From: a virus
Taxonomy: Duplodnaviria > Caudoviricetes
Reading direction: 5' to 3' (one strand)
Virus record (IMG/VR): IMGVR_UViG_3300031669_005479
Coordinates: 138,815 to 202,814 of that record
Length of the DNA stretch: 64,000 nucleotides
Below, one piece after another: positions 39,139 through 64,000 of this stretch. Both the position numbers and the translations under genes were made by a program. Within the stretch, counting starts at the first letter, position 1; the number at the start of each line of letters is the position of its first letter. The notes under the pieces were generated by a model. The model saw only the letters and a list, made by a program, of their open reading frames with translations, was not told the origin of the DNA and searched no databases.

Positions 39139-39424
39139 TAGACATATTTTACAATAAATACTAAAAATATTTTAATATTTACTTGCCCTAATCACAATAT
39201 TAACATTTTAAATATTAGTTCATAGTATTTATATTAGAAAAATCATTGCTTAGTATATGAATTAAGTTATGTTAAATTGGCAAAAATGATTTTTAAAATT
39301 TTATCTCCAGATAGTGGTTATGTAAAATTTTAATTGCTAATAAATAAAAAATTGCATCATAAGTTCTAATTACGGTGCAATTTTTTTTATGCTATAATTA
39401 AGTATTTATTTAAAAGATACTGAT

Positions 39425-39730
39425 ATGACAAATAACAAACATAGACTTTTTGAACTTATGGAAAAAGTTAACCCTAACTTCAAAAATGAAGATGTACTAC
39501 AAAAAACAACAGAACCAGTTCCTACAGATGTTGCAAATCTTGAAAAGGCAGTAAAATCTTCAAGTTCTGTTCAATATGCAGATTCTCGTATTGATACACC
39601 AAAGGAATTCGAATTTGCATTTAAGGATTGGTTGAGTGGTACGGGTTTTCATCCACAAAAAAATCCAATATCTATTTCTCAAGCGCAAAGTTTTGTTAAA
39701 AATGCAATGGAAAGTTTAGGATATAAATAA
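39425..39730 (+). CDS. hypothetical protein with KHRLFELM leader
   Basis: MTNNKHRLFELMEKVNPNFKNE; AGTATTTAT at 39401. Confidence 0.7.
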   Translation: MTNNKHRLFELMEKVNPNFKNEDVLQKTTEPVPTDVANLEKAVKSSSSVQYADSRIDTPKEFEFAFKDWLSGTGFHPQKNPISISQAQSFVKNAMESLGYK

Positions 39731-39745
39731 TTTTTTTAAAAAATG

Positions 39746-39776
39746 CTTGTATTTATAATTTTATTATATATCTTTG
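39746..39776 (+). promoter_or_regulatory. Bacteroidota-type primary-sigma promoter of tRNA cluster 1
   Basis: CTTG-N19-TATCTTTG matches the -33 TTTG / -7 TAnnTTTG consensus. Confidence 0.8.
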
Positions 39777-39814
39777 TATCGATTTTGTTTATACATAGTT
39801 TTAAAGTTTTAGTT

Positions 39815-39889
39815 ATGAAAAATTTAACACATACACAACCCCAACCGAAACAACAGCCACAAATTGTTGAATGGGGAAGTTATGCTTGA
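39815..39889 (+). CDS. attenuator leader peptide 1 (Gln/Pro/His-rich)
   Basis: MKNLTHTQPQPKQQPQIVEWGSYA; upstream of the Pro/Pro/His/Gln/Gln/Gln tRNAs; contains GAATGGGG complementary to the terminator 5' arm. Confidence 0.85.
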   Translation: MKNLTHTQPQPKQQPQIVEWGSYA

Positions 39890-39914
39890 ATTTTTCGAAA
39901 GATGATTTTAAGTG

Positions 39915-39950
39915 AAAAAAACCCCATTCTTAATTGAATGGGGTTTTTTT
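39915..39950 (+). terminator. attenuator terminator 1
   Basis: AAAAAAACCCCATTC-ttaatt-GAATGGGGTTTTTTT. Confidence 0.9.
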
Positions 39951-40007
39951 GTAACAAAAAAATTTTTATTTCGTACAATAGTTCATTGACATATTAATAT
40001 TTTATAT

Positions 40008-40082
40008 CTAGGTGTTCCGCAGATGGATATACGGGCGTGCCTTGGAAGCACGTGTTCGCAGGTTCGAATCCTGCTACCTAGA
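40008..40082 (+). tRNA. tRNA-Pro(TGG)
   Basis: CTAGGTG/TACCTAG acceptor, CGTGC-CTTGGAA-GCACG, GTTCGAATC. Confidence 0.93.
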
Positions 40083-40167
40083 GGTAATCAAATTAAACTA
40101 CCTGCACGTGGTGATTACTGCACGGTTGAATAAACCGACCAAATGTTTAATGTATAATATATATGGT

Positions 40168-40677
40168 ATGAGTAATATAAGCGATATACTTAAAGAAGCA
40201 AAAAGTAAAGGATATTATGCCGATGAATATGGTAAAATTTATTCAGCGAAGAAATTAATTTCATTACGAAATAGAGATAATCGGTTAAATTTTACCATAA
40301 GATATTATGGAAAAAGAGTTACAATTGCCGTACATAAGTATGTTGCATATTTAAAATATGGTGATAAAATTTTTGATGATGGTATTGAAGTAAGACATTT
40401 AAATGGAAATTCGCTAGATAATTCATATGAAAATATTTTAATTGGAACTCATAGCGATAATATGCTTGATATTCCAAAAAATGTTAGAATAAAAAAAGCA
40501 ATATCAGCATCAAGTAAAAATAGAAAATTTGGTGATGATATCATTAAGAATATTATGAATGATAAAAATAATGGTATGTCATATAGTAAATTATGTGAAA
40601 AATATAATACAAGTAAATCGACATTAAGTTATTTATTTAATAATGCGTATTATAGTGGTGCTAGAAATATAGAGTAG
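40168..40677 (+). CDS. HNH homing endonuclease between two tRNA-Pro genes
   Basis: VHKYVAY...VRHLNGNSLDNSYENI...GTHSDN and a C-terminal HTH; start could be 40150. Confidence 0.88.
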   Translation: MSNISDILKEAKSKGYYADEYGKIYSAKKLISLRNRDNRLNFTIRYYGKRVTIAVHKYVAYLKYGDKIFDDGIEVRHLNGNSLDNSYENILIGTHSDNMLDIPKNVRIKKAISASSKNRKFGDDIIKNIMNDKNNGMSYSKLCEKYNTSKSTLSYLFNNAYYSGARNIE

Positions 40678-40743
40678 TAGCGCAGTTGGAAGCGTACCGC
40701 ATTTGGGATGCGGGGGTCGTGAGTTCGAGTCTCACTTACTCTA
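40671..40743 (+). tRNA. tRNA-Pro(TGG), second divergent copy
   Basis: AGAGTAG/TTACTCT, CCGCA-TTTGGGA-TGCGG, GTTCGAGTC. Confidence 0.93.
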
Positions 40744-40750
40744 CTAAACA

Positions 40751-40824
40751 TGGTGATTGAAGCATTAAAGTGATGCGTCAGACTGTGAATCTGAAGAAGA
40801 CGGGTCAGTACCGTCCTTTCACCC
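40751..40824 (+). tRNA. tRNA-His(GTG) with an atypical T-loop
   Basis: TCAGA-CTGTGAA-TCTGA; T-arm GACGG-GTCAGTA-CCGTC. Confidence 0.85.
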
Positions 40825-40829
40825 AAATA

Positions 40830-40893
40830 TCGATTCTACAATCGATAAATATATATTATCGGTTGTAGAATCGATAAATATATATTTATCGAT
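40830..40893. repeat. nested inverted repeats / palindrome
   Basis: CGATTCTACAATCGATAA...TTATCGGTTGTAGAATCG overlapping ATCGATAAATATATATTTATCGAT. Confidence 0.8.
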
Positions 40894-41056
40894 GTGATAG
40901 ACGGCAAATGAGTTGGTGTTAAAGAAGACATAACCAAAGATAAGTTAAATAATCTTAGAGTAGATGTAATGCAGAAGATACGAAAAGATATTGTAGATGG
41001 TAAATGTCAATTATTTACATACGAAAGAAAATTTTATTAATTAATTAATATAATAC

Positions 41057-41130
41057 TGTCTCGTGGCGCAATCGGCTAACGCTCCTGACTCTGAATCAGA
41101 TGACTACGGGTTCGAATCCTGTCGAGACAA
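41057..41130 (+). tRNA. tRNA-Gln(CTG)
   Basis: TGTCTCG/CGAGACA, CTGA-CTCTGAA-TCAG, GGTTCGAATCC. Confidence 0.92.
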
Positions 41131-41192
41131 CAATAGTATTTTTTTGCAAAAAGTAGCATTTTTCGATACTTTCCGCAAAATATAACTAATAT

Positions 41193-41277
41193 TGACCTCT
41201 GGTGGAATTGGCTAAACACAACTGTCTTTGAAGCAGTCGTCCGTAAGGATTTGCAAGTTCGAGTCTTGCGAGGTCAA
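41193..41277 (+). tRNA. non-canonical tRNA(TTG), Gln anticodon with a long variable arm
   Basis: TGACCTC/GAGGTCA, ACTGT-CTTTGAA-GCAGT, V-arm TCC-GTAA-GGA, Leu-like D-arm GTGGAATTGGCTAAACAC. Confidence 0.85.
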
Positions 41278-41282
41278 CAAAA

Positions 41283-41405
41283 ATAGGGTAGAATGGTGAG
41301 ACAGCTTCCCCTCGGACTAAAGGCATCAGGATTTGACGATGCCGATGTGAAGCATAGGTCAAGCAATGCATTGACTTAGGTCGAACCAAGAAAATCGAGG
41401 TTATT
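41283..41405 (+). ncRNA. candidate structured non-coding RNA between tRNAs
   Basis: Helices CCTCG/CGAGG, GGCATC/GATGCC and AGGTCAA/TTGACTT; GC-richer than the background. Confidence 0.4.
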
Positions 41406-41408
41406 TAT

Positions 41409-41481
41409 TGCTATGTAGTGTAATGGTTTAGCACAAGTGACTTTGAATCACTTAGTTACAGTTCGAATCTGTACATAGCAA
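41409..41481 (+). tRNA. tRNA-Gln(TTG), canonical
   Basis: TGCTATG/CATAGCA, AGTGA-CTTTGAA-TCACT, GTTCGAATC. Confidence 0.93.
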
Positions 41482-41490
41482 CTATTTTTA

Positions 41491-41572
41491 ATGTGGAAGT
41501 TAAAAAAATTCATTATTTTTACAAAAACATTATGTGGAAGTTAAAAAAATTCATTATTTTTACAAAAACATT
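41491..41572 (+). repeat. perfect 41-bp tandem duplication
   Basis: ATGTGGAAGTTAAAAAAATTCATTATTTTTACAAAAACATT twice. Confidence 0.92.
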
Positions 41573-41575
41573 ATT

Positions 41576-41959
41576 ATGAAGTATAACCTATATCTTGATG
41601 ACTTCCGTGACCCCATAGATTCTGCATATTATCTTAATAATCCTATTTATGAAACACTTCAATGGATTGTTGTTAGAAATTATGATGAATTTATTAAGTG
41701 TGTTATAGAAAATAGTATTCCAGAAGTAATATCCTTCGATCATGACTTGGCAGCAACACATTATGACCATCAATCTAATATAGAATACGATGTATTTACA
41801 GAAAAAACTGGTTATGATTGTGCTAAATGGTTTATTGATTATGTGATTGATAATAAATCGAAACTACCAAAAACAATACTTATTCATTCGATGAATCCTG
41901 CTGGAAGTGCTAATATTAAATCGCTATTTGATAGTTATATTAAATCATTAAATCTGTAA
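41576..41959 (+). CDS. cyclic-phosphate-processing receiver-like domain protein
   Basis: LYLDDFRDP, VVRNYDEF, ISFDHDL, TGYDCAKW, IHSMNPAG. Confidence 0.8.
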   Translation: MKYNLYLDDFRDPIDSAYYLNNPIYETLQWIVVRNYDEFIKCVIENSIPEVISFDHDLAATHYDHQSNIEYDVFTEKTGYDCAKWFIDYVIDNKSKLPKTILIHSMNPAGSANIKSLFDSYIKSLNL

Positions 41960-42932: not shown

Positions 42933-43835
42933 ATGAAAATTACTATTGATTATCTTAAAAAAATTAGGGCTTGTGATGAAGCAATTGCTAGGTTTAACAA
43001 CACACCTGAACTACATTCAGTTAATATTGAAAAATCAACTGAAATTATTGTTGGTGATGTATCATTATTTAATGATATTAATTGGTTAGTTAATAAGTTA
43101 AAAGGTAAACTGCCTGTTAGAAAGTTAACCTATAAAGGTTCTGATGGTTATTGGTCAGAAATGACTTATGATGATAATGGAAATAAGTTAACATATAAAA
43201 ATTCTGATGGTTATTGGTTAGAATATACCTATGATGAAAATGGAAAATTGTTAACCACTAAAAATTCTGATGGTTATTGGTTAGAATATACCTATGATGA
43301 TAATGGAAAATTGTTAACCACTAAAAATTCTGATGGTTATTGGGAAGAAAACACCTATGATGATAATGGAAATAAGTTAACACATAAGAAATCTAATGGT
43401 AGTTGGGAAGAAAACACCTATGATGATAATGGAAATAAGTTAACATATAAAAATTCTGATGGTTATTGGGAAGAAAACACCTATGATGATAATGGAAATA
43501 AGTTAACATATAAAAATTCTAATGGTTATTGGGAAGAAAACACCTATGATGATAATGGAAATAAGTTAACATATAAGAATTCTGATGGTTATTGGGAAGA
43601 AAACACCTATGATGATAATGGAAATTTGTTAACCACTAAAGATTCTAAAGGTTATTCGTGTGAATATACCTATGATGAAAATGGAAATAAATTAACCTAT
43701 AAGGATTCTAAAGGTTATTCGTGTGAATATACGTATGATGAAAATGGAAATAAATTAACCAATAAGGATTCTAATGACAATATTACTGATTACCCTAAAT
43801 TAAAATATGATTTGACTATTTTTGAAATAAAATAA
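42933..43835 (+). CDS. YD-like 22-aa tandem-repeat protein
   Basis: About 10 copies of GYWEENTYDDNGNKLTYKNSD (66-bp unit). Confidence 0.85.
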   Translation: MKITIDYLKKIRACDEAIARFNNTPELHSVNIEKSTEIIVGDVSLFNDINWLVNKLKGKLPVRKLTYKGSDGYWSEMTYDDNGNKLTYKNSDGYWLEYTYDENGKLLTTKNSDGYWLEYTYDDNGKLLTTKNSDGYWEENTYDDNGNKLTHKKSNGSWEENTYDDNGNKLTYKNSDGYWEENTYDDNGNKLTYKNSNGYWEENTYDDNGNKLTYKNSDGYWEENTYDDNGNLLTTKDSKGYSCEYTYDENGNKLTYKDSKGYSCEYTYDENGNKLTNKDSNDNITDYPKLKYDLTIFEIK

Positions 43836-43975: not shown

Positions 43976-44065
43976 ATGAAAAATTTACTCGACATATTAA
44001 TGGCAACTTTGGTGGAAGTCCTATTATGGGCAGACGCAGAGGATAAATTACGCACAGTCGGGTAA
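43976..44065 (+). CDS. attenuator leader peptide 2 (Leu/Asp/Glu/Val/Ala/Trp/Met)
   Basis: MKNLLDILMATLVEVLLWADAEDKLRTVG; ends in GTCGGGT complementary to the terminator 5' arm. Confidence 0.85.
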   Translation: MKNLLDILMATLVEVLLWADAEDKLRTVG

Positions 44066-44094
44066 TGTATATTACACACTCCTTTCTTAATAAG

Positions 44095-44129
44095 AAAAAC
44101 CCGACAAACGAAAGTAAGTCGGGTTTTTT
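44095..44129 (+). terminator. attenuator terminator 2
   Basis: AAAAACCCGAC...GTCGGGTTTTTT. Confidence 0.9.
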
Positions 44130-44169
44130 GATTTTTAGGTTGGATGTTCTTTGACATGTTGGAAATTTT

Positions 44170-44246
44170 GGTGATGTAGTTCAGTTGGCTAGAATGGGGC
44201 ACTGTCTATGCTCAGGTCGAGGGTTCGAGTCCCTTCATCACCGCCA
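44170..44246 (+). tRNA. tRNA-Asp(GTC) with encoded CCA
   Basis: GGTGATG/CATCACC-G-CCA, GGGCA-CTGTCTA-TGCTC. Confidence 0.95.
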
Positions 44247-44262
44247 AATTATAATATTAAAT

Positions 44263-44346
44263 GCGGCGTTATACAAGTGGCTAAAGTGGCAAGACCTTCA
44301 ATCTTGTATCGAAAGATTTCGAGGGGTTCGAATCCCCCACGCCGTA
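44263..44346 (+). tRNA. non-canonical tRNA(TTC), Glu anticodon with a long variable arm and C33
   Basis: GCGGCGT/ACGCCGT, CAAGA-CCTTCAA-TCTTG, V-arm ATC-GAAA-GAT, GGTTCGAATCC. Confidence 0.75.
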
Positions 44347-44441
44347 CGAAGTTCAATATGAAATATAGTGGTTTCAGAGGTTTGTTCATATTGAGGTTTA
44401 GTAATTCCAAGGTCGATAATAATGACCAAAAATCTCGCCAT

Positions 44442-44513
44442 GCTCGATTCGTCTAACGATTAGGACAAATGGTTTTCGTCCATTAAATGAGGGTTTGATT
44501 CCCTCATCGAGTA
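44442..44513 (+). tRNA. tRNA-Glu(TTC), canonical size
   Basis: GCTCGAT/ATCGAGT, AATGG-TTTTCGT-CCATT, GAGGG-TTTGATT-CCCTC. Confidence 0.9.
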
Positions 44514-44522
44514 CAATAATTT

Positions 44523-44593
44523 GGGGAATTGATGTAATGGTAGCGTGTTTGGCCTACATCCAAAACGAAATAGTTCGATTCTATTATTCCCTA
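44523..44593 (+). tRNA. tRNA-Val(TAC) with C33
   Basis: GGGGAAT/ATTCCCT, TTTGG-CCTACAT-CCAAA. Confidence 0.87.
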
Positions 44594-44604
44594 CAAAATA
44601 AATT

Positions 44605-44679
44605 GCGAGTGTAGCCGAATGGTTAATAGGCAACTGTTTTAGAAACAGAAATTTGCGGGTTCGACTCCCGCCATTCGCA
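44605..44679 (+). tRNA. tRNA-Leu(TAG) lacking the long variable arm
   Basis: GCGAGTG/CATTCGC, CTGT-TTTAGAA-ACAG, short variable loop. Confidence 0.85.
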
Positions 44680-44702
44680 CAAAGGGTTAAAAACAAAACT
44701 AT

Positions 44703-44789
44703 GGGGATGTGATGAAATTGGCGATACATGCCAGACTTAGAATCTGGTGCTAATAAACTGGCGTGTGGGTTCGAATCCCACCATCCTCA
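44703..44789 (+). tRNA. tRNA-Leu(TAG), canonical class II
   Basis: GGGGATG/CATCCTC, CCAGA-CTTAGAA-TCTGG, long V-arm. Confidence 0.95.
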
Positions 44790-44902
44790 CGTTTAGACCG
44801 TTTAGAATTTTTATTAGTAATGAAAATGCTAGTAAACATAAAAGTTGTTCAATCACATTGGATGAATTATTGACGAGAATTAAAATGTGGAATGTGAAAT
44901 AT

Positions 44903-44977
44903 GGGGCGTTAACTCAGTCTGCCTAGAGTGCTGCACTTGCAATGCAGAGGTCATCGGTTGAAATCCGATACGTTCCA
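44903..44977 (+). tRNA. tRNA-Ala(TGC)
   Basis: GGGGCGT/ACGTTCC with G3:U70, CTGCA-CTTGCAA-TGCAG. Confidence 0.94.
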
Positions 44978-45034
44978 CGAGTAGACCGTTTTAGAATTTT
45001 TTATTGACTAAGAGTAACGTAGAAAAATTCATAT

Positions 45035-45108
45035 GGCTCTGTAGCCGAACTGGAATAGGCAACTGTTTTAAAATCAGAAATTTGTGGGTTCGAGTCCCAC
45101 CAGAGCTA
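45035..45108 (+). tRNA. tRNA-Leu(TAA) lacking the long variable arm
   Basis: GGCTCTG/CAGAGCT, loop TTTAAAA; paralogous to 44605..44679. Confidence 0.83.
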
Positions 45109-45267
45109 CAAATCGTCTGGAGATTCCAGACAAAGTTTTTATAGTAAAATTTATTATTGTTTAATGAATGAAATTGAGTTACATGTTATTGATACTACAG
45201 AACAAAAATGTTTTAAAAAATGTATCTCTGAAAAGTATTTAAATATGATTATTAATATCATTAATAC

Positions 45268-45350
45268 ACGTCCGTAGGCATTGGTAAGCCAAACAGTCTC
45301 CAAAACTGCAACCCGAAAGGGTCTTGCTCGTTCGAATCGAGCTGGACGTG
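45268..45350 (+). tRNA. non-canonical tRNA-Trp(CCA) with a long variable arm and 4-bp anticodon stem
   Basis: ACGTCCG/TGGACGT-G, aCAGT-CTCCAAA-ACTGc, V-arm ACCC-GAAA-GGGT. Confidence 0.87.
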
Positions 45351-45443
45351 CTAATTTTTATAAATTTTGTAACATTTTGAATAGAGTATACGTATCATAA
45401 GAATCATTTAGTATTTTATTAATTTTGTAAAATTTATAAAGTT

Positions 45444-54101: not shown

Positions 54102-54194
54102 ATGAGAACTTTTGGTAAATATTATTTTAGTAAAAAATCATATAAGAAACAACTTATAGGAATCGGGAATAGTATGTCCAAAAGAAAATCATAA
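54102..54194 (+). CDS. attenuator leader peptide 3 (Lys/Tyr-rich)
   Basis: MRTFGKYYFSKKSYKKQLIGIGNSMSKRKS; AATCGGG complementary to the terminator 5' arm. Confidence 0.83.
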   Translation: MRTFGKYYFSKKSYKKQLIGIGNSMSKRKS

Positions 54195-54214
54195 TGATTT
54201 TGGAATTAAACCAT

Positions 54215-54245
54215 AAAAACCCGATTCGAAAGTTTCGGGTTTTTT
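54215..54245 (+). terminator. attenuator terminator 3
   Basis: AAAAACCCGA-ttcgaaagtt-TCGGGTTTTTT. Confidence 0.9.
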
Positions 54246-54263: not shown

Positions 54264-54350
54264 GTACCTATGGCTCAATTGGTAGAGCAACTGGCTTTTA
54301 ACCAGTGGGGTTGCTAACGCACGTTGAGGGTTCGAGTCCCTCTGGGTACA
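54264..54350 (+). tRNA. non-canonical tRNA-Lys(TTT) with a 19-nt variable region
   Basis: GTACCTA/TGGGTAC, ACTGG-CTTTTAA-CCAGT, variable region GGGGTTGCTAACGCACGTT. Confidence 0.88.
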
Positions 54351-54355
54351 CAAAT

Positions 54356-54434: not shown

Positions 54435-54503
54435 GGGAGTAATTCTTTGGAGAAACCAGCTCTGTAAAAGCTCACATAGTGGGTTCGATGCCCTCTACTC
54501 CCA
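54435..54503 (+). tRNA. minimal tRNA-Tyr(GTA) with no long V-arm and a 4-nt D-loop
   Basis: GGGAGTA/TACTCCC, TTCT-TTGG-AGAA, AGCT-CTGTAAA-AGCT, GGTTCGATGCC. Confidence 0.75.
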
Positions 54504-55745: not shown

Positions 55746-58700
55746 ATGACAAATAATATTCTTAAAAGTTTTCCCAAACAAGAGGTGGAAAAAGCAGCAT
55801 TACAATACTTTAAAGGTGATGAGTTAGCAGCAGACGTTTGGATTAAAAAATACTGTTTAAAGGATGAAAATAACTTTTATGAATTGACTCCCGATGACAT
55901 GCATCGAAGAATTGCAAAAGAAATTGCAAGAATTGAAGCAAAATATATAAATCCGCTTTCCGAAGACCAGATTTACGAAACACTAAAAAATTTTAAAAGA
56001 ATTGTGCCACAAGGCAGTCCAATGTCAGGAATTGGTAATAATTTTCAGGTAGTTTCGCTAGGAAATTGTTTTGTTGTTGGTAATGATGCTGATTCATATG
56101 GTGGAATTATTCGAATTGATGAGGAGCAAACACAATTAATGAAGCGTAGAGGTGGTGTTGGTCATGATTTGTCGATGATCAGACCAAATATGACACCAGT
56201 AAAAAACAGTGCAATTACTTCTACAGGTATCGTTCCCTTCATGGAAAGATATTCGAATAGCACAAAAGAGGTTGCACAGGATGGACGACGTGGTGCATTA
56301 ATGTTATCCGTGTCAATAAAACATCCTGATGCAGAATCGTTTATTGATGCAAAATTATTACAGGGAAAAATATCTGGTGCAAATATTTCGGTAAGAATTG
56401 ATGATGAGTTCATGAATTCGGCATTAAATGAAAAATCATATAATCAACAATATCCAATTGATGGTATCGCCAAGTATCAAAAAGAAATTGATGCATCAAA
56501 ACTTTGGAAAAAAATTGTTCACAATGCTTGGAAATCTGCCGAACCTGGTATTCTTTTTTGGGATAAAATTCTAAATGAATCAATACCTTCATGCTATGGT
56601 AAAAAATGGGTTGAAAAAAGCACAAATCCATGTGTCAGTGAAGATACATTAATATTGACAGATGATGGATATCTACCGATCAAAGAATTGGTTGGTAAAA
56701 AGGTTAATGTTTGGAACGGTGAAGAGTTTTCCGAAACCATTCCAGCAATAACTGGATATAATCAAAAAATGATTAAAATAAAATTTTCTGATGGTAGTGA
56801 ATTAAAATGTACACCATATCATAAATTCTACACTTGGAAAGGTTTTGAACGTGATGGAAAGGTAATAAAAAAGAACGGAAATGAACTTATTGTTGGTGAT
56901 AAGTTGGAAAAATATAAATTTCCAAAATTAAAACGAGATTTGAGCACTGGCCATCATATTTACATATCGACTGATAATATTGGCAATGGCTACATAACAA
57001 ATAAGGAATTTTATACTGCAGGTTTTTTTGCTGGTGACGGACATATTAAAAGAAATGATGAGTATATGATTTCATTATATGGAGTAAAAAAAGAATTAAT
57101 ACCATATTTGGAAATTATTGGTAATGAATCTGAGGATATTGCTAACGATAAAATTACGGTAAGAATAAATTTACCAGAATATTTTAAATTTAGTCCTCAA
57201 AACATACCAATTAAAAAAATAATACCAATCTATGAAAAGGGGATGCCTGAATTAGATGTGTTGAATTGGTTGGCTGGTTTAATCGATTCTGACGGTTCAC
57301 GTAATTCTGATAAAGGGTCAATATCAATTTCTTCAATAGATAAAAACTTCTTAATGCAAATTAAACTAAATATATTAAATACGTTTGGTATTAATGGAAG
57401 TGTTATTGATGAAAAGAATGGCGGTATTAAGAAAATTAAGGGAATTGAATATGAAACAAATAAATCATATAGACTAATAATTAGCGCACATAATGTTAAA
57501 AAATTATATGATTTAGGTTTAAGAACACATAGAGTTAAAATCGATGATGTTAATCCAAATCGTGATGCATCTCGATTTATAACTGTTGAATCAATTGAAT
57601 CTATCGATGATGCAGACGTTGTATATTGTTTTACTGAAGAAAAACGTGGGAGAGGTTGCTTTAATGGCGTGGTTACTGGACAATGTGGCGAATTGCCGTT
57701 GCCACCATATGATTCATGTAGATTGGTGTGCATGAATTTATATGGTTACGTTGTAAATCCTTTTACAGTAAATGCGTATTTTGATGAGGAAGCATTTAGT
57801 AGAGATGTACAGATTGCTATGAGGTATATGGATGATATTGTAGACCTAGAAGTTGAAAAAATCGATACTATTTTATTGAAAATTCAATCCGACCCAGAAT
57901 CAGACGAAATTAAGTTAGTTGAAAAGAATTTATGGGAAAAAATTCGTGGTATGGCACTTGAAGGTAGGAGAACTGGCTTAGGCGTTACTGCAGAAGGAGA
58001 TATGCTTGCCGCACTTGGCTTACGATATGGTACAGAAGAGGCGACAATATTCAGTGAAAATGTGCATAAGGGACTTAAATTAAACGCATATCGCTCATCA
58101 GTTACAATGGCTAAAGAACGTGGTGCTTTTCCAATTTATAATCATAATTTAGAATCAAGCAATCCGTTTATATTAAGAATTTTAGAAGAAGACCCACAAT
58201 TACATTACGATATGTGGACTTATGGTCGTAGAAATATTGCACTGCTAACTATTGCACCAACTGGTAGTGCAAGCTTAATGACACAAACAACATCAGGCAT
58301 TGAACCAGCATTTTTACCTGTTTATATGCGTAGACGTAAGATTAATCCACAAGAAAAGGATGTTCGTGTGGATTTTATTGATGATGAGGGTATTTCATGG
58401 ATGCAATATCCAGTATTTCATCATAAGTTTGAAATATGGTTAGAAGTTGAGGGATATGATGTTAATGTTGTTAAAACCATGAGCAAAGAACAACTTGACG
58501 AAATTGTGAAGAAATCACCCTATTATAAAGCAACATCAAATGACGTTGATTGGGTGATGAAAGTTATAATGCAAGGTAAAATACAAAAACATATTGACCA
58601 TAGCATTTCTGTTACGGTTAATCTTCCAGAATCGGTGAGTGAAGAAACTGTTGCAAAAGTATATGAAACTGGTTGGAAATCTGGTTGCAAAGGCATTACT

Positions 58701-59354
58701 GTTTATCGTGATGGTAGTAGAAATGGTGTACTTGTTGGTGCAGAAGATAATAAAAAAGAAAATTTTCACGAGAATCACACACCCAAAAGACCAAAAAGAT
58801 TGAAGGGTGAAATTCACAAATTTCAAAATAATTTGGAAAAATGGATTGCCGTTGTTGGCCTACGTGATGGTAGACCATATGAAATTTTCACTGGAAGACT
58901 TGAAAATGGATTAAGTAAATTACCTCCAAACATTAAAGACTGTGAAGTTGTTAAACAAATATTTGAAGTAGAGGAAATGGATGAGGATGGTAAAATGATT
59001 AAAGTTAGAAAAAAAAGATACGATATTGAATATATTGATAGTAATGGCGAAAAACAAATACATACTGGTTTAAACCACGCATTTAATCCTGAATATTGGA
59101 ACTATGCAAAACTTTTTTCAGGTGTACTTCGACATGGTATGCCAATTATTTATGTCTATCAACTAATTAATTCTATGAATCTAAATAGTGATCATTTGAA
59201 TACGTGGAAAAATGGCGTTGCACGTACAATAAAAAAGTACATTAAGGACGGTGAAAAAATTGAAGGTAAATGTCCTGAATGTGGTAGTGAACATTTAGAA
59301 TTTAAAGAGGGATGTTTAATCTGTATGTCCTGTGGTAGTTCAAAATGTAACTAA
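55746..59354 (+). CDS. nrdJ: class II (adenosylcobalamin-dependent) ribonucleotide reductase with intein
   Basis: SLGNCFV, RRGGVG, TNP/CGE active site split by the intein, RRTGLG, TIAPTG, KGITVYRDGS, C-terminal CPECG...CMSCG. Confidence 0.92.
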   Translation: MTNNILKSFPKQEVEKAALQYFKGDELAADVWIKKYCLKDENNFYELTPDDMHRRIAKEIARIEAKYINPLSEDQIYETLKNFKRIVPQGSPMSGIGNNFQVVSLGNCFVVGNDADSYGGIIRIDEEQTQLMKRRGGVGHDLSMIRPNMTPVKNSAITSTGIVPFMERYSNSTKEVAQDGRRGALMLSVSIKHPDAESFIDAKLLQGKISGANISVRIDDEFMNSALNEKSYNQQYPIDGIAKYQKEIDASKLWKKIVHNAWKSAEPGILFWDKILNESIPSCYGKKWVEKSTNPCVSEDTLILTDDGYLPIKELVGKKVNVWNGEEFSETIPAITGYNQKMIKIKFSDGSELKCTPYHKFYTWKGFERDGKVIKKNGNELIVGDKLEKYKFPKLKRDLSTGHHIYISTDNIGNGYITNKEFYTAGFFAGDGHIKRNDEYMISLYGVKKELIPYLEIIGNESEDIANDKITVRINLPEYFKFSPQNIPIKKIIPIYEKGMPELDVLNWLAGLIDSDGSRNSDKGSISISSIDKNFLMQIKLNILNTFGINGSVIDEKNGGIKKIKGIEYETNKSYRLIISAHNVKKLYDLGLRTHRVKIDDVNPNRDASRFITVESIESIDDADVVYCFTEEKRGRGCFNGVVTGQCGELPLPPYDSCRLVCMNLYGYVVNPFTVNAYFDEEAFSRDVQIAMRYMDDIVDLEVEKIDTILLKIQSDPESDEIKLVEKNLWEKIRGMALEGRRTGLGVTAEGDMLAALGLRYGTEEATIFSENVHKGLKLNAYRSSVTMAKERGAFPIYNHNLESSNPFILRILEEDPQLHYDMWTYGRRNIALLTIAPTGSASLMTQTTSGIEPAFLPVYMRRRKINPQEKDVRVDFIDDEGISWMQYPVFHHKFEIWLEVEGYDVNVVKTMSKEQLDEIVKKSPYYKATSNDVDWVMKVIMQGKIQKHIDHSISVTVNLPESVSEETVAKVYETGWKSGCKGITVYRDGSRNGVLVGAEDNKKENFHENHTPKRPKRLKGEIHKFQNNLEKWIAVVGLRDGRPYEIFTGRLENGLSKLPPNIKDCEVVKQIFEVEEMDEDGKMIKVRKKRYDIEYIDSNGEKQIHTGLNHAFNPEYWNYAKLFSGVLRHGMPIIYVYQLINSMNLNSDHLNTWKNGVARTIKKYIKDGEKIEGKCPECGSEHLEFKEGCLICMSCGSSKCN
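56631..57683 (+). mobile_element. Gln-terminal LAGLIDADG intein (351 aa) at the RNR active-site Cys
   Basis: Starts CVSEDT, ends GVVTGQ followed by Cys; motifs AGFFAGDG and LAGLIDSDG. Confidence 0.92.
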
Positions 59355-62591: not shown

Positions 62592-62777
62592 ATGGAACTA
62601 ATATCGATTAGTAAAGCAAGTAAAATCTTAGGTGTCACGCAAAAAACATTAAGAGTTTGGGAAAGGGATGGTGATATTATAGCATTTTACACACCTAAAG
62701 GTCATAGAAGATATAACTATGATTACATTATTGATTTAAGTAAAAATGGAAAAAAATCAGCGCAATCATTGGACTAA
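62592..62777 (+). CDS. MerR-type HTH (IS607 TnpA N-terminus-like)
   Basis: ISKASKILGVTQKTLRVWER...TPKGHRRY. Confidence 0.8.
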   Translation: MELISISKASKILGVTQKTLRVWERDGDIIAFYTPKGHRRYNYDYIIDLSKNGKKSAQSLD

Positions 62778-63672
62778 AGAACGCTGTGCTATTGAGGCGT
62801 TGAAATATAGTACCAGAAGTGATTTTTGGAAATATTCTAAATCAGCATATAATGCATCAATTAGAAATAAGTGGTTAAACGAAATTTCTTATCACATGCA
62901 CAGTAAATTAGTTGTATGGGATAGAGAAAATTGTCACCAAGAAGCATTGAAATACAAAACAAGAAGTGAATTTAATAGGTATTCATTAAATGCATATCGT
63001 TATGCATTGAAAGAACATCTTCTTGATGAAATATGTTCTCACATGATAGTTATTGGTAATAAAAAGAAAAGATGTATTTACGTATTTGAATTTGGTGACA
63101 ATTTTGCTTATGTTGGATTGACATACAATACCAATAAGCGAATCGTTGAACATTTAAGTACCAGAAATTCACAAGTATATAAACACGTTCAAACCACTAA
63201 TTTAACACCAGTATTTAAACAATTAACAGATTATCTTGATGTTAGTGATGCGATGATAAAAGAAAATGATTATTTAACACAATATGAGAATAATGGATGG
63301 AAATTATTAAATAAAGCAAAAACTGGAGCATTGGGTGGTAATGAAGTTTATTGGACTATTAAAAAATGTCATGAAGAGGCGTTAAAATACGAAAAAAAAT
63401 ATGAATTTATGAAGGGCACTCCAGCAGCATACAGTGCTGCATATAAAAACGGATGGCTGGTTGAAATTTGTGAACATATGATTGAATCATATAAGCCAGA
63501 TGGATATTGGAATATTGATAAATGTCATGAAGATGCATTAAAATATGATAAAAGAAATATCTATCAACATAAATCAAAATCTTCATACAATACCGCATTA
63601 AGGAACGGTTGGCTCGATGAAATCTGTCAACACATGCCAATACGCAGTAAAAAACATAAAAATGATAAATAA
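62746..63672 (+). CDS. GIY-YIG endonuclease flanked by repeated helical modules
   Basis: CIYVFEF...AYVGLT; repeated WTKERC..EALKY..R..F...Y..A...WL.EIC.HM modules. Confidence 0.83.
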   Translation: MEKNQRNHWTKERCAIEALKYSTRSDFWKYSKSAYNASIRNKWLNEISYHMHSKLVVWDRENCHQEALKYKTRSEFNRYSLNAYRYALKEHLLDEICSHMIVIGNKKKRCIYVFEFGDNFAYVGLTYNTNKRIVEHLSTRNSQVYKHVQTTNLTPVFKQLTDYLDVSDAMIKENDYLTQYENNGWKLLNKAKTGALGGNEVYWTIKKCHEEALKYEKKYEFMKGTPAAYSAAYKNGWLVEICEHMIESYKPDGYWNIDKCHEDALKYDKRNIYQHKSKSSYNTALRNGWLDEICQHMPIRSKKHKNDK

Positions 63673-63821: not shown

Positions 63822-63944
63822 ATGAAAACACGAACAACAAATATTACCATTAGCACATCGATTATTAGTCGTAATGGAAGTTCTATATTCTGTTCAAATT
63901 TTACAGGCAGAAATATTGATGTTATCGGGTTATGGTTTTCATAA
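63822..63944 (+). CDS. attenuator leader peptide 4 (Thr/Ile/Ser/Arg/Asn/Gly/Phe/Cys)
   Basis: MKTRTTNITISTSIISRNGSSIFCSNFTGRNIDVIGLWFS; ATCGGGTT complementary to the terminator 5' arm. Confidence 0.8.
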   Translation: MKTRTTNITISTSIISRNGSSIFCSNFTGRNIDVIGLWFS

Positions 63945-63968
63945 AAGTAAAAGAAAACTAATAAAGTC

Positions 63969-64000
63969 AAAAACCCGATTCGAAAGATTCGGGTTTTTTT
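63969..64000 (+). terminator. attenuator terminator 4
   Basis: AAAAACCCGA-ttcgaaagat-TCGGGTTTTTTT. Confidence 0.9.

Follow-up and report, generated by a model that had tools for sequence, protein, structure and literature searches.

A probable leader-peptide attenuator in front of the tRNA genes of an uncultured phage

The locus described here touches on two questions, namely how tRNA genes are regulated by phages and for what reason near-complete tRNA sets occur in huge phages. The locus is located in the last 64 kb (referred to as the window) of the 202,814-bp uncultured virus record IMGVR_UViG_3300031669_005479 (30% G+C). Along the DNA a promoter, a small open reading frame (ORF), an antiterminator strand, an intrinsic terminator and a series of tRNA genes follow each other, and this arrangement is called unit 1 (Table 1). 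Judged from its sequence, unit 1 is probably a transcription attenuator of the ribosome-mediated (leader-peptide) kind and would gate a tRNA operon of the phage. The anatomy of the unit, its conservation and covariation, the match in composition between leaders and tRNA genes and the geometry of the folds carry this reading.

The promoter of unit 1 is of the Bacteroidota type; the consensus of Bacteroides promoters is TTTG/TAnnTTTG. Transcription would start at about position 39783. The leader ORF encodes the peptide MKNLTHTQPQPKQQPQIVEWGSYA. Codons 6-16 translate to H T Q P Q P K Q Q P Q, and nine of these eleven residues are His, Gln or Pro, encoded by CAT, CAA (four times), CAG, CCC, CCG and CCA. 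This composition and the position of the leader had been reported in an earlier note on this DNA, and both were confirmed in the sequence. The gene order downstream of the terminator is Pro(UGG), HNH ORF, Pro(UGG), His(GUG), Gln(CUG), Gln(UUG), Gln(UUG). A codon-anticodon check revealed that these tRNAs can decode 9 of the 11 codons of the run. The two Pro and three Gln tRNAs listed in the earlier note were identified by both ARAGORN and Rfam; its tRNA-His was recovered with Rfam only. A longer in-frame ORF starting at ATG 39743 (48 amino acids) was rejected as the leader, because it overlaps the promoter and is missing in most relatives.

The sequence GAATGGGG within the leader (region 2) is identical to the 3' arm of the terminator (region 4) and is complementary at every position to the 5' arm CCCCATTC (region 3). 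The terminator stem comprises 8 bp, is G+C-rich and is lengthened by an A-run at 39915-39921. In the window, 56 nt separate the U-tract from the first tRNA gene.

Both the composition of the leader and the copy of the terminator arm depart from chance. After the initial Met, 9 of 23 residues are His, Gln or Pro, compared with 1.8 expected from the long ORFs of the phage (binomial P = 3e-5), and the same share is attained by 0.5% of the 1042 small ORFs of the genome. For the arm copy we analyzed 54 terminator-like hairpins on both strands of the 203-kb genome, pairing the upstream 80 nt with the 5' arm and using 200 shuffles for comparison. The terminator of unit 1 ranked first, with an upstream complement of -14.6 kcal/mol and z = -5.0 (0 of 200 shuffles), in agreement with the claim of the earlier note that region 2 competes for the 5' arm. 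The terminators of three sister units, described below, showed z values of -4.2 to -4.4 (0 of 200 shuffles each). One unrelated hairpin had a similar raw energy (-12.2 kcal/mol) but a z of only -2.1, and most of the others were near z = 0. The upstream arm copy is specific to the terminators of the tRNA leaders.

The folding of the leader RNA was simulated with a ribosome footprint of 27 nt kept unpaired and with a transcript ending just before the 3' arm of the terminator emerges. The terminator hairpin has an energy of -20.2 kcal/mol, the antiterminator duplex (39869-39876:39922-39929) of -14.6 kcal/mol and the duplex of regions 1 and 2 (1:2) of -10.2 kcal/mol. In the minimum free energy (MFE) structure of the free RNA, region 1 pairs with UGGGG of region 2 and the start-codon region pairs with the sequence at the stop codon (outer stem). 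Region 3 stays unpaired, and the terminator can therefore form. With the A site of the ribosome at codons 6-15 the full 8-bp antiterminator was obtained; with the A site at any position from codon 16 to the stop codon it could not form. Thus, footprint folding reproduced both states postulated in the earlier note, in which a ribosome at the stop favours termination and a stall in the Gln/Pro run frees region 2. The same geometry was obtained for all units, and in every unit the cognate codons are located within the stall-permissive zone. In an identical simulation of E. coli trpL the 2:3 pairing was confined to A-site positions Trp11 to Thr13 and was absent in the free RNA and with the ribosome at the stop, in accordance with what is known of this attenuator.

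From these elements the following course of events is proposed. Host RNA polymerase would initiate at the TAnnTTTG promoter and synthesize the RNA of the 24-codon leader, which would be translated by a ribosome behind the advancing polymerase. If charged Gln, Pro and His tRNAs are ample, the ribosome would complete the ORF and mask GAAUGGGG (region 2). With region 2 masked, CCCCAUUC (region 3) would pair with GAAUGGGG further downstream (region 4), and transcription would stop at the U-tract in front of the tRNA genes. Slow decoding of CAA, CAG, CCN or CAU would stall the ribosome at codons 6-15, open the 1:2 hairpin and expose region 2. Upon emergence of region 3 the two regions would pair, no terminator would be formed, and the polymerase would enter the genes for tRNA-Pro, tRNA-His and tRNA-Gln. 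An untranslated RNA would form the 1:2 hairpin and the outer stem over the start codon, with termination as the result. Leader translation, ribosome stalling and changed read-through are the predicted steps of this scheme, and its net effect would be a negative feedback that supplies a tRNA set when ribosomes lack that set. The three sister units would act likewise for the remaining tRNA blocks.

Two pattern scans of IMG/VR were used to collect relatives. The unit-1 leader was found in 44 uncultured phage contigs of 10 to 365 kb, with Pro/His/Gln tRNAs behind the leader in each contig whose downstream sequence was read. The -7 box TAnnTTTG is present in 30 of 30 unique unit-1 relatives, the combination TTTG-N18-21-TAnnTTTG in 24 of them, and start, stop and length of the leader are kept. 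Codon variation was compared in 24 leaders of equal length. Position 11 is Pro in 100% of them, with CCG, CCC, CCA and CCT all in use; CAA and CAG are mixed as Gln codons among the relatives, and substitutions at positions 9 and 14 are confined to Pro, His and Gln. The synonymous changes with Pro and Gln kept indicate a constraint on the amino acid or the tRNA. The codons GAA-TGG-GGA, in contrast, show zero synonymous change and the antiterminator nucleotides are invariant in the 24 leaders, which indicates a constraint on the RNA. Residues 17, 18 and 22-24 are freely variable. A single ORF thus appears to be under two constraints, one concerning the tRNA requested and the other RNA pairing, and this is the mix expected of an attenuator.

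The complement of the outer stem after the stop codon, AAATTTTTC, is nearly invariant in the relatives, and the search patterns did not require it. Contig L053 combines the antiterminator GAACGGGG with the terminator arm CCCTGTTC, a compensatory change by which Glu-Trp-Gly becomes Glu-Arg-Gly, and in contig L056 the antiterminator element is located in a different reading frame. The sole relative with a unit-1 cluster starting with tRNA-Arg(ACG), L035, contains an Arg CGC codon in the leader run. An RNAalifold consensus of 34 unit-1 sequences yielded the terminator alone, including four pairs with two-sided changes; the alternative pairings were tested individually. A blastn search of 39300-41600 against deposited phage genomes gave tRNA-level matches only. 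Bacteroides phage DAC23, which was reached via ribonucleotide reductase, carries four tRNAs and lacks a unit of this kind.

The window contains three further units with the layout of unit 1 (units 2 to 4), and the units have the layout in common, not the sequence. In most of them the antiterminator overlaps or abuts the stop codon. The unit-2 leader MKNLLDILMATLVEVLLWADAEDKLRTVG is located ahead of tRNAs for Asp, Glu (two), Val, Leu (two), Ala, Leu and Trp (44170-45351). The unit-3 leader MRTFGKYYFSKKSYKKQLIGIGNSMSKRKS precedes tRNA-Lys(UUU), tRNA-Lys(CUU) and a weak tRNA-Tyr(GUA)-like gene (54435-54503, 23 bits). At unit 4 the contig stops inside the terminator (63969-64000) with no terminal redundancy, and the tRNAs of this unit are outside the assembly. 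The enrichment of the four leaders for their own tRNA sets corresponds to P values of 3e-5, 5e-5, 3e-3 and 6e-8, and none of the four window leaders is enriched for the tRNA set of any other unit. The terminators of units 3 and 4 are nearly identical, and the promoter block of unit 4 is almost a copy of that in unit 2; the assembly break at unit 4 is probably due to repeats.

For comparison we used the tRNA regions of five large relatives, of which four are rated as complete and the fifth as about 63% complete. The relatives carry 34-59 tRNA matches, and the four units occur in identical order in 5 of 5. In these relatives the unit-4 homologues lead into tRNAs for Thr, Cys, Ile, Ser, Phe, Gly, Asn and Arg. 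This set had been foretold from the leader of unit 4 alone, and the complete relatives indeed carry the cluster. Covariation was also detected in the sister units. Two nucleotides upstream of GUCGGG in unit 2 the pair is G:C, U:A, C:G or A:U depending on the phage, and in unit 4 the arms occur as AUCGGG/CCCGAU, GUCGGG/CCCGAC and ACGGG/CCCGU.

Two deposited huge phages, LR745206.1 (635 kb) and LR756500.1 (462 kb), were reached through the ribonucleotide reductase of the phage. Their leaders are non-homologous to those of the window and their tRNA groupings are different. The units consist again of promoter, small ORF, arm copy and terminator, and each ORF uses the amino acids of its own cluster (Table 1). 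Permutation tests were performed with four genomes, two from one clade and two others with non-homologous leaders. The true pairing of leaders and clusters topped all permutations in 4 of 4 genomes (1 of 24, 24, 24 and 6), and the matching of leader and cluster holds over three unrelated phage lineages. Because unrelated leaders with other tRNA groupings match likewise, the principle seems to be general in huge phages with Bacteroidota-type promoters. Whether the four leaders of the window work as a phage-borne tRNA homeostat, with each block transcribed on demand when ribosomes stall for those tRNAs, is in our opinion evenly balanced. If they do, the phage could sense and repair a depletion of host tRNAs caused by its own host shut-off, by a mismatch in codon usage or by anticodon-nuclease defences of the host.

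Several observations weigh against unit 1 as an attenuator of this kind. At equilibrium the full-length RNA favours the terminator (-45.1 versus -33.0 kcal/mol), and with a stalled ribosome the equilibrium structure is still the terminator (about -31 versus -23 to -25.5 kcal/mol). Since equilibrium always favours the terminator, the model depends on kinetics. The earlier note had treated a fold more stable than the terminator as indispensable. This is invalid, because the terminator wins here but also in full-length RNA of the trpL control; attenuators work kinetically, and equilibrium fold stability was dropped as a criterion. On the level of decoding, CCC can be read by tRNA-Pro(UGG) solely via four-way wobble, and tRNA-His(GUG) is atypical with two U.U mismatches in the acceptor stem (G-1 is present). 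Fine-scale matching is imperfect, as Val or Lys is for example frequent in the unit-1 run, and the unit-2 leader of relative G002 has Ala codons, with no tRNA-Ala called there by ARAGORN. The pooled counts for unit 1 (cognate codons 208 inside and 36 outside the stall-permissive zone, other residues 179 inside and 249 outside) come from relatives by descent and are hence non-independent. Finally, the free RNA of units 2 and 4 already makes the antiterminator, and the default state therefore differs among the units.

The behaviour of free units 2 and 4 is of importance for an alternative in which the switch is coupled to translation but reads the general translation status instead of specific tRNAs, with codon bias as a secondary matter. 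Any finished leader would then terminate, and read-through would report slowing, host shut-off or a lack of ribosomes. In units 2 and 4 missing translation alone would lead to read-through, and the position of the antiterminator at the stop codon in most units is in line with such a sensor. It does not explain, however, why each leader contains the amino acids of its own cluster, which is also the case for unrelated leaders with other groupings, or why Pro and Gln identity is retained through synonymous change. Moreover, the 1:2 hairpin of unit 1 terminates when the RNA is untranslated. Taken together, we consider a sensor of general translation status unlikely.

The region between the terminator and the first tRNA provides a further objection to the attenuator. 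A motif GTTC(T/A)TTGA(C/A)AT between the U-tract and the first tRNA recurs in many units (window 39981-39992 and 44146-44168) and is extended to GGTTCTTTGACATGTTGGAAATTT ahead of tRNA-Asp. This conserved motif and promoter-core-like fragments are present after the terminator in the window (39951-40006) and in some other units, and judging from these elements a second, attenuator-independent start between terminator and tRNA is possible. The motif may act as a second promoter, as a signal for processing or as a post-terminator element. It was rejected as a second promoter of the canonical type, because its distance to any TTTG is not constant and because it often directly adjoins the U-tract. 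In many relatives the distance from the U-tract to the first tRNA is just 10-26 nt. This gap leaves no space for a promoter, and the tRNAs there would therefore be made by read-through of the terminator.

These data also concern the explanation that unit 1 ends in an ordinary, partly leaky terminator of a small-peptide gene, that a second promoter or constitutive read-through gives rise to the tRNAs and that the arm copy is non-regulatory. The promoter-like fragments and the conserved motif after the U-tract, found in the window and in some relatives, would fit, and so would the thermodynamic dominance of the terminator. The short gap in many relatives does not fit, nor does the arm copy, which among the 54 terminators is particular to those of the four tRNA leaders and shows covariation with the terminator arm. 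In addition, the lack of constraint on the peptide sequence beyond the cognate run and the RNA element speaks against a functional peptide. An ordinary terminator therefore appears quite improbable to us. In public sequencing runs (soil, wastewater) the stretch is chiefly present as DNA. Few short contigs on 39400-41500 came from two metatranscriptomic runs and from two runs recorded as metagenomic RNA-Seq cDNA, the latter probably DNA. Two contigs from RNA libraries (40594-40744 and 40578-40775) cover the second tRNA-Pro and its flanks, and a 199-nt contig, probably from a DNA library, spans 39758-39955; starts, ends or levels are seen in none of these contigs.

A comparison with Rfam bears on the remaining alternative, a PyrR-like or T-box-like RNA switch that binds a protein or a tRNA and controls the terminator, with the ORF as an incidental feature. 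None of the Rfam leader families was detected at gathering score in the window, where tRNAs alone pass the threshold. The best leader match on 39740-40010 was Thr_leader with 25.1 bits, which is below the cut-off of 55. All permissive matches on this segment (PyrR site, Thr_leader and assorted small RNAs bearing terminators) were sub-threshold and were discarded as terminator-driven. The match to the PyrR binding site at 39837-39953 is the observation in favour of an RNA switch; at 34.1 bits it stays under the curated cut-off of 54 and is probably driven by the terminator. A T-box was found neither at gathering score in the window nor at E <= 10 on 39740-40010. As the four units share their layout without sharing sequence, and as start, stop and frame of the ORF are kept under codon-level selection, we regard an RNA switch of this type as very improbable.

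Table 1. Positions of the features of units 1 to 4 in the window, and leaders of two deposited huge phages. Numbering starts with the first nucleotide of the window.
Feature	Position	Strand	Details
Unit 1 promoter, Bacteroidota type	39746-39776	+	-33 CTTG 39746-39749, 19-nt spacer, -7 box TATCTTTG 39769-39776
Unit 1 leader ORF	39815-39889	+	ATG 39815-39817, 24 codons, stop TGA 39887-39889
Outer stem, 5' half	39817-39825	+	GAAAAAUUU, overlaps start codon; partner 39888-39896 (MFE)
Candidate regulatory codon run, codons 6-16	39830-39862	+	CAT ACA CAA CCC CAA CCG AAA CAA CAG CCA CAA
Region 1	39839-39843	+	CCCCA within Gln-Pro-Gln codons; partner UGGGG of region 2 (39872-39876) in untranslated RNA
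Region 2, antiterminator strand	39869-39876	+	GAATGGGG, codons Glu-Trp-Gly
Outer stem, 3' half	39888-39896	+	GAAUUUUUC, overlaps stop codon (MFE)
Unit 1 intrinsic terminator	39922-39950	+	5' arm CCCCATTC 39922-39929, loop 39930-39935, 3' arm GAATGGGG 39936-39943, U7 39944-39950
Conserved motif	39981-39992	+	GTTCATTGACAT, between terminator and first tRNA
tRNA-Pro(UGG)	40007-40083	+	
HNH homing-endonuclease-like ORF	40168-40677	+	between two tRNA-Pro genes; Pfam HNH_3, E = 2.6e-9
tRNA-Pro(UGG)	40671-40744	+	
tRNA-His(GUG)	40752-40823	+	Rfam 36.3 bits, cut-off 29; ARAGORN: no call
tRNA-Gln(CUG)	41057-41131	+	
tRNA-Gln(UUG)	41193-41278	+	
tRNA-Gln(UUG)	41409-41482	+	
Unit 2	43976-44129	+	leader ORF 43976-44065, antiterminator AGTCGGGT 44056-44063
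Unit 2 terminator	44100-44105 / 44118-44123	+	CCCGAC / GTCGGG, U6
Unit 3	54102-54245	+	leader ORF 54102-54194, antiterminator GAATCGGG 54160-54167
Unit 3 terminator	54220-54227 / 54234-54239	+	CCCGATTC / TTCGGG, U6
Unit 4	63822-64000	+	leader ORF 63822-63944 (MKTRTTNITISTSIISRNGSSIFCSNFTGRNIDVIGLWFS), antiterminator ATCGGGTT 63924-63931
Unit 4 terminator	63972-63979 / 63990-63993	+	AACCCGAT / CGGG, U-tract; cut by contig end
LR745206 leader			MTTNSTHKNFSKSHKWFSNQSFGTESVLSLN, ahead of His, Phe, Trp, Lys, Arg, Ser
LR745206 leader			MNTITNIASYESYYEEGNLVRRNNYVVM, ahead of Glu, Tyr, Ile, Gly, Met
LR745206 leader			MTTMNLNMTMNLTLNVVNITLCNIRPTEGSDLFREIVM, ahead of Asn, Arg, Leu, Val, Ile, Thr, Met
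LR745206 leader			MKTINVNIAPVNPQPQDQDPMRKANYVFMIS, ahead of Pro, Asp, Gln
LR756500 leader			MKTLSTYPLGQAQTLGTPPITG, ahead of Ala, Leu, Pro, Tyr, Gln, Gly, Thr
LR756500 leader			MINLVNIIDNRRDDNNIIQSSWA, ahead of Asn, Asp, Arg, Met
LR756500 leader			MKAISVHIIHIWEHLLEEVNINIM, ahead of His, Glu, Val, Trp, Leu

Additional features were noticed within and around the tRNA regions. Between tRNA-His and tRNA-Gln of unit 1 a direct repeat of about 30 nt (TACAATCGATAAATATATAT... and TAGAATCGATAAATATATAT...) is located at 40830-40900. Four tRNAs are unusually long for class I (84-88 nt), namely Gln 41193-41278, Glu 44263-44347, Trp 45268-45351 and Lys 54264-54351, and insertions or a long variable region may account for this. 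In G002-G006 (L042, L045, L046, L049, L051) and in LR756500 (L069) the tRNA region ends with a tRNA that has a CUA anticodon (ARAGORN 'Pyl-cta'). This tRNA is a candidate amber suppressor and suggests TAG recoding in this phage group. Directly after the Gln tRNAs of unit 1 an ORF at 41534-41959 matches the Pfam family cREC_REC (cyclic-phosphate processing receiver domain, E = 2.5e-21), which is associated with RNA-repair systems; because of this link the phage may also mend cleaved tRNA.

Mobile endonucleases are common in the window. The HNH ORF at 40168-40677 separates the two tRNA-Pro genes, the ribonucleotide reductase (55746-59354) holds an intein with a LAGLIDADG domain, and a GIY-YIG ORF is located at 62746-63672, ahead of unit 4. 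Between units 1 and 2, an ORF of 300 amino acids (42933-43835) consists of about ten tandem repeats of the RHS/YD type (Pfam RHS_repeat). A few hundred nucleotides upstream of unit 1 (about 39286-39400 in the window) we identified a conserved ORF of 15-19 codons similar to MIFKILSPDSGYVKF, followed by a hairpin (TTGCA...TGCAA) and a T-run; it is also present in relatives G002, G006, L005, L010, L022 and others. Neither a strong arm copy nor tRNAs immediately downstream were found for this ORF in the window and the relatives.

If the attenuator reading is correct, this would be the first case known to us of tRNA genes controlled by the decoding speed of their own codons, and it would establish a direct supply-on-demand loop. 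Classical attenuation would then be used by viruses and in connection with Bacteroidota-type promoters. It becomes directly testable whether the tRNAs of phages make up for a loss of tRNA in the course of infection. The units would also supply compact sensors of decoding capacity for multiple amino acids, with natural variants for many tRNA combinations.

Among known systems, jumbo and huge phages have likewise large clustered tRNA sets, but in the searchable literature these arrays are described as gene content. T-box riboswitches also report tRNA charging by a choice between terminator and antiterminator. In contrast to the phage unit, with its conserved and presumably translated ORF and without an Rfam T-box match, they bind uncharged tRNA directly via a specifier codon and the T-box sequence, and translation is not involved. 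In E. coli the pheST operon, which encodes phenylalanyl-tRNA synthetase, is attenuated by the leader peptide pheM. It resembles the phage units in that a component of the translation apparatus is attenuated, with feedback on the supply of charged tRNA; pheST, however, is a cellular gene for a synthetase of one amino acid, whereas the phage units would control tRNA genes.

The closest resemblance in layout is to the attenuators of amino-acid operons (trpL, hisL, pheL, leuL), which also have a short ORF rich in regulatory codons, the 1:2, 2:3 and 3:4 pairings and an intrinsic terminator, and in which a ribosome at the stop masks region 2 and a stalled ribosome frees it. Control of trpL is likewise kinetic and not at equilibrium, with the same behaviour in our simulation, and in thrL and ilvL several amino acids are sensed by one leader as well. 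In contrast to these attenuators, the phage-borne units would regulate tRNA genes instead of biosynthetic enzymes, so that the product itself is sensed; up to eight or nine amino acids are assigned to one leader, and the four leaders jointly span nearly all amino acids. The units are related to the amino-acid leaders neither in sequence nor by Rfam. A full-text literature search found no description of leader-peptide attenuation of tRNA genes, phage or cellular. To our knowledge, the genes regulated by all described leader-peptide attenuators function in amino-acid biosynthesis or aminoacylation, unlike the genes downstream of unit 1, which are tRNAs and a homing endonuclease. What would be new here are tRNA genes as the regulated genes; the working principle is already known from trpL, hisL, thrL and ilvL.

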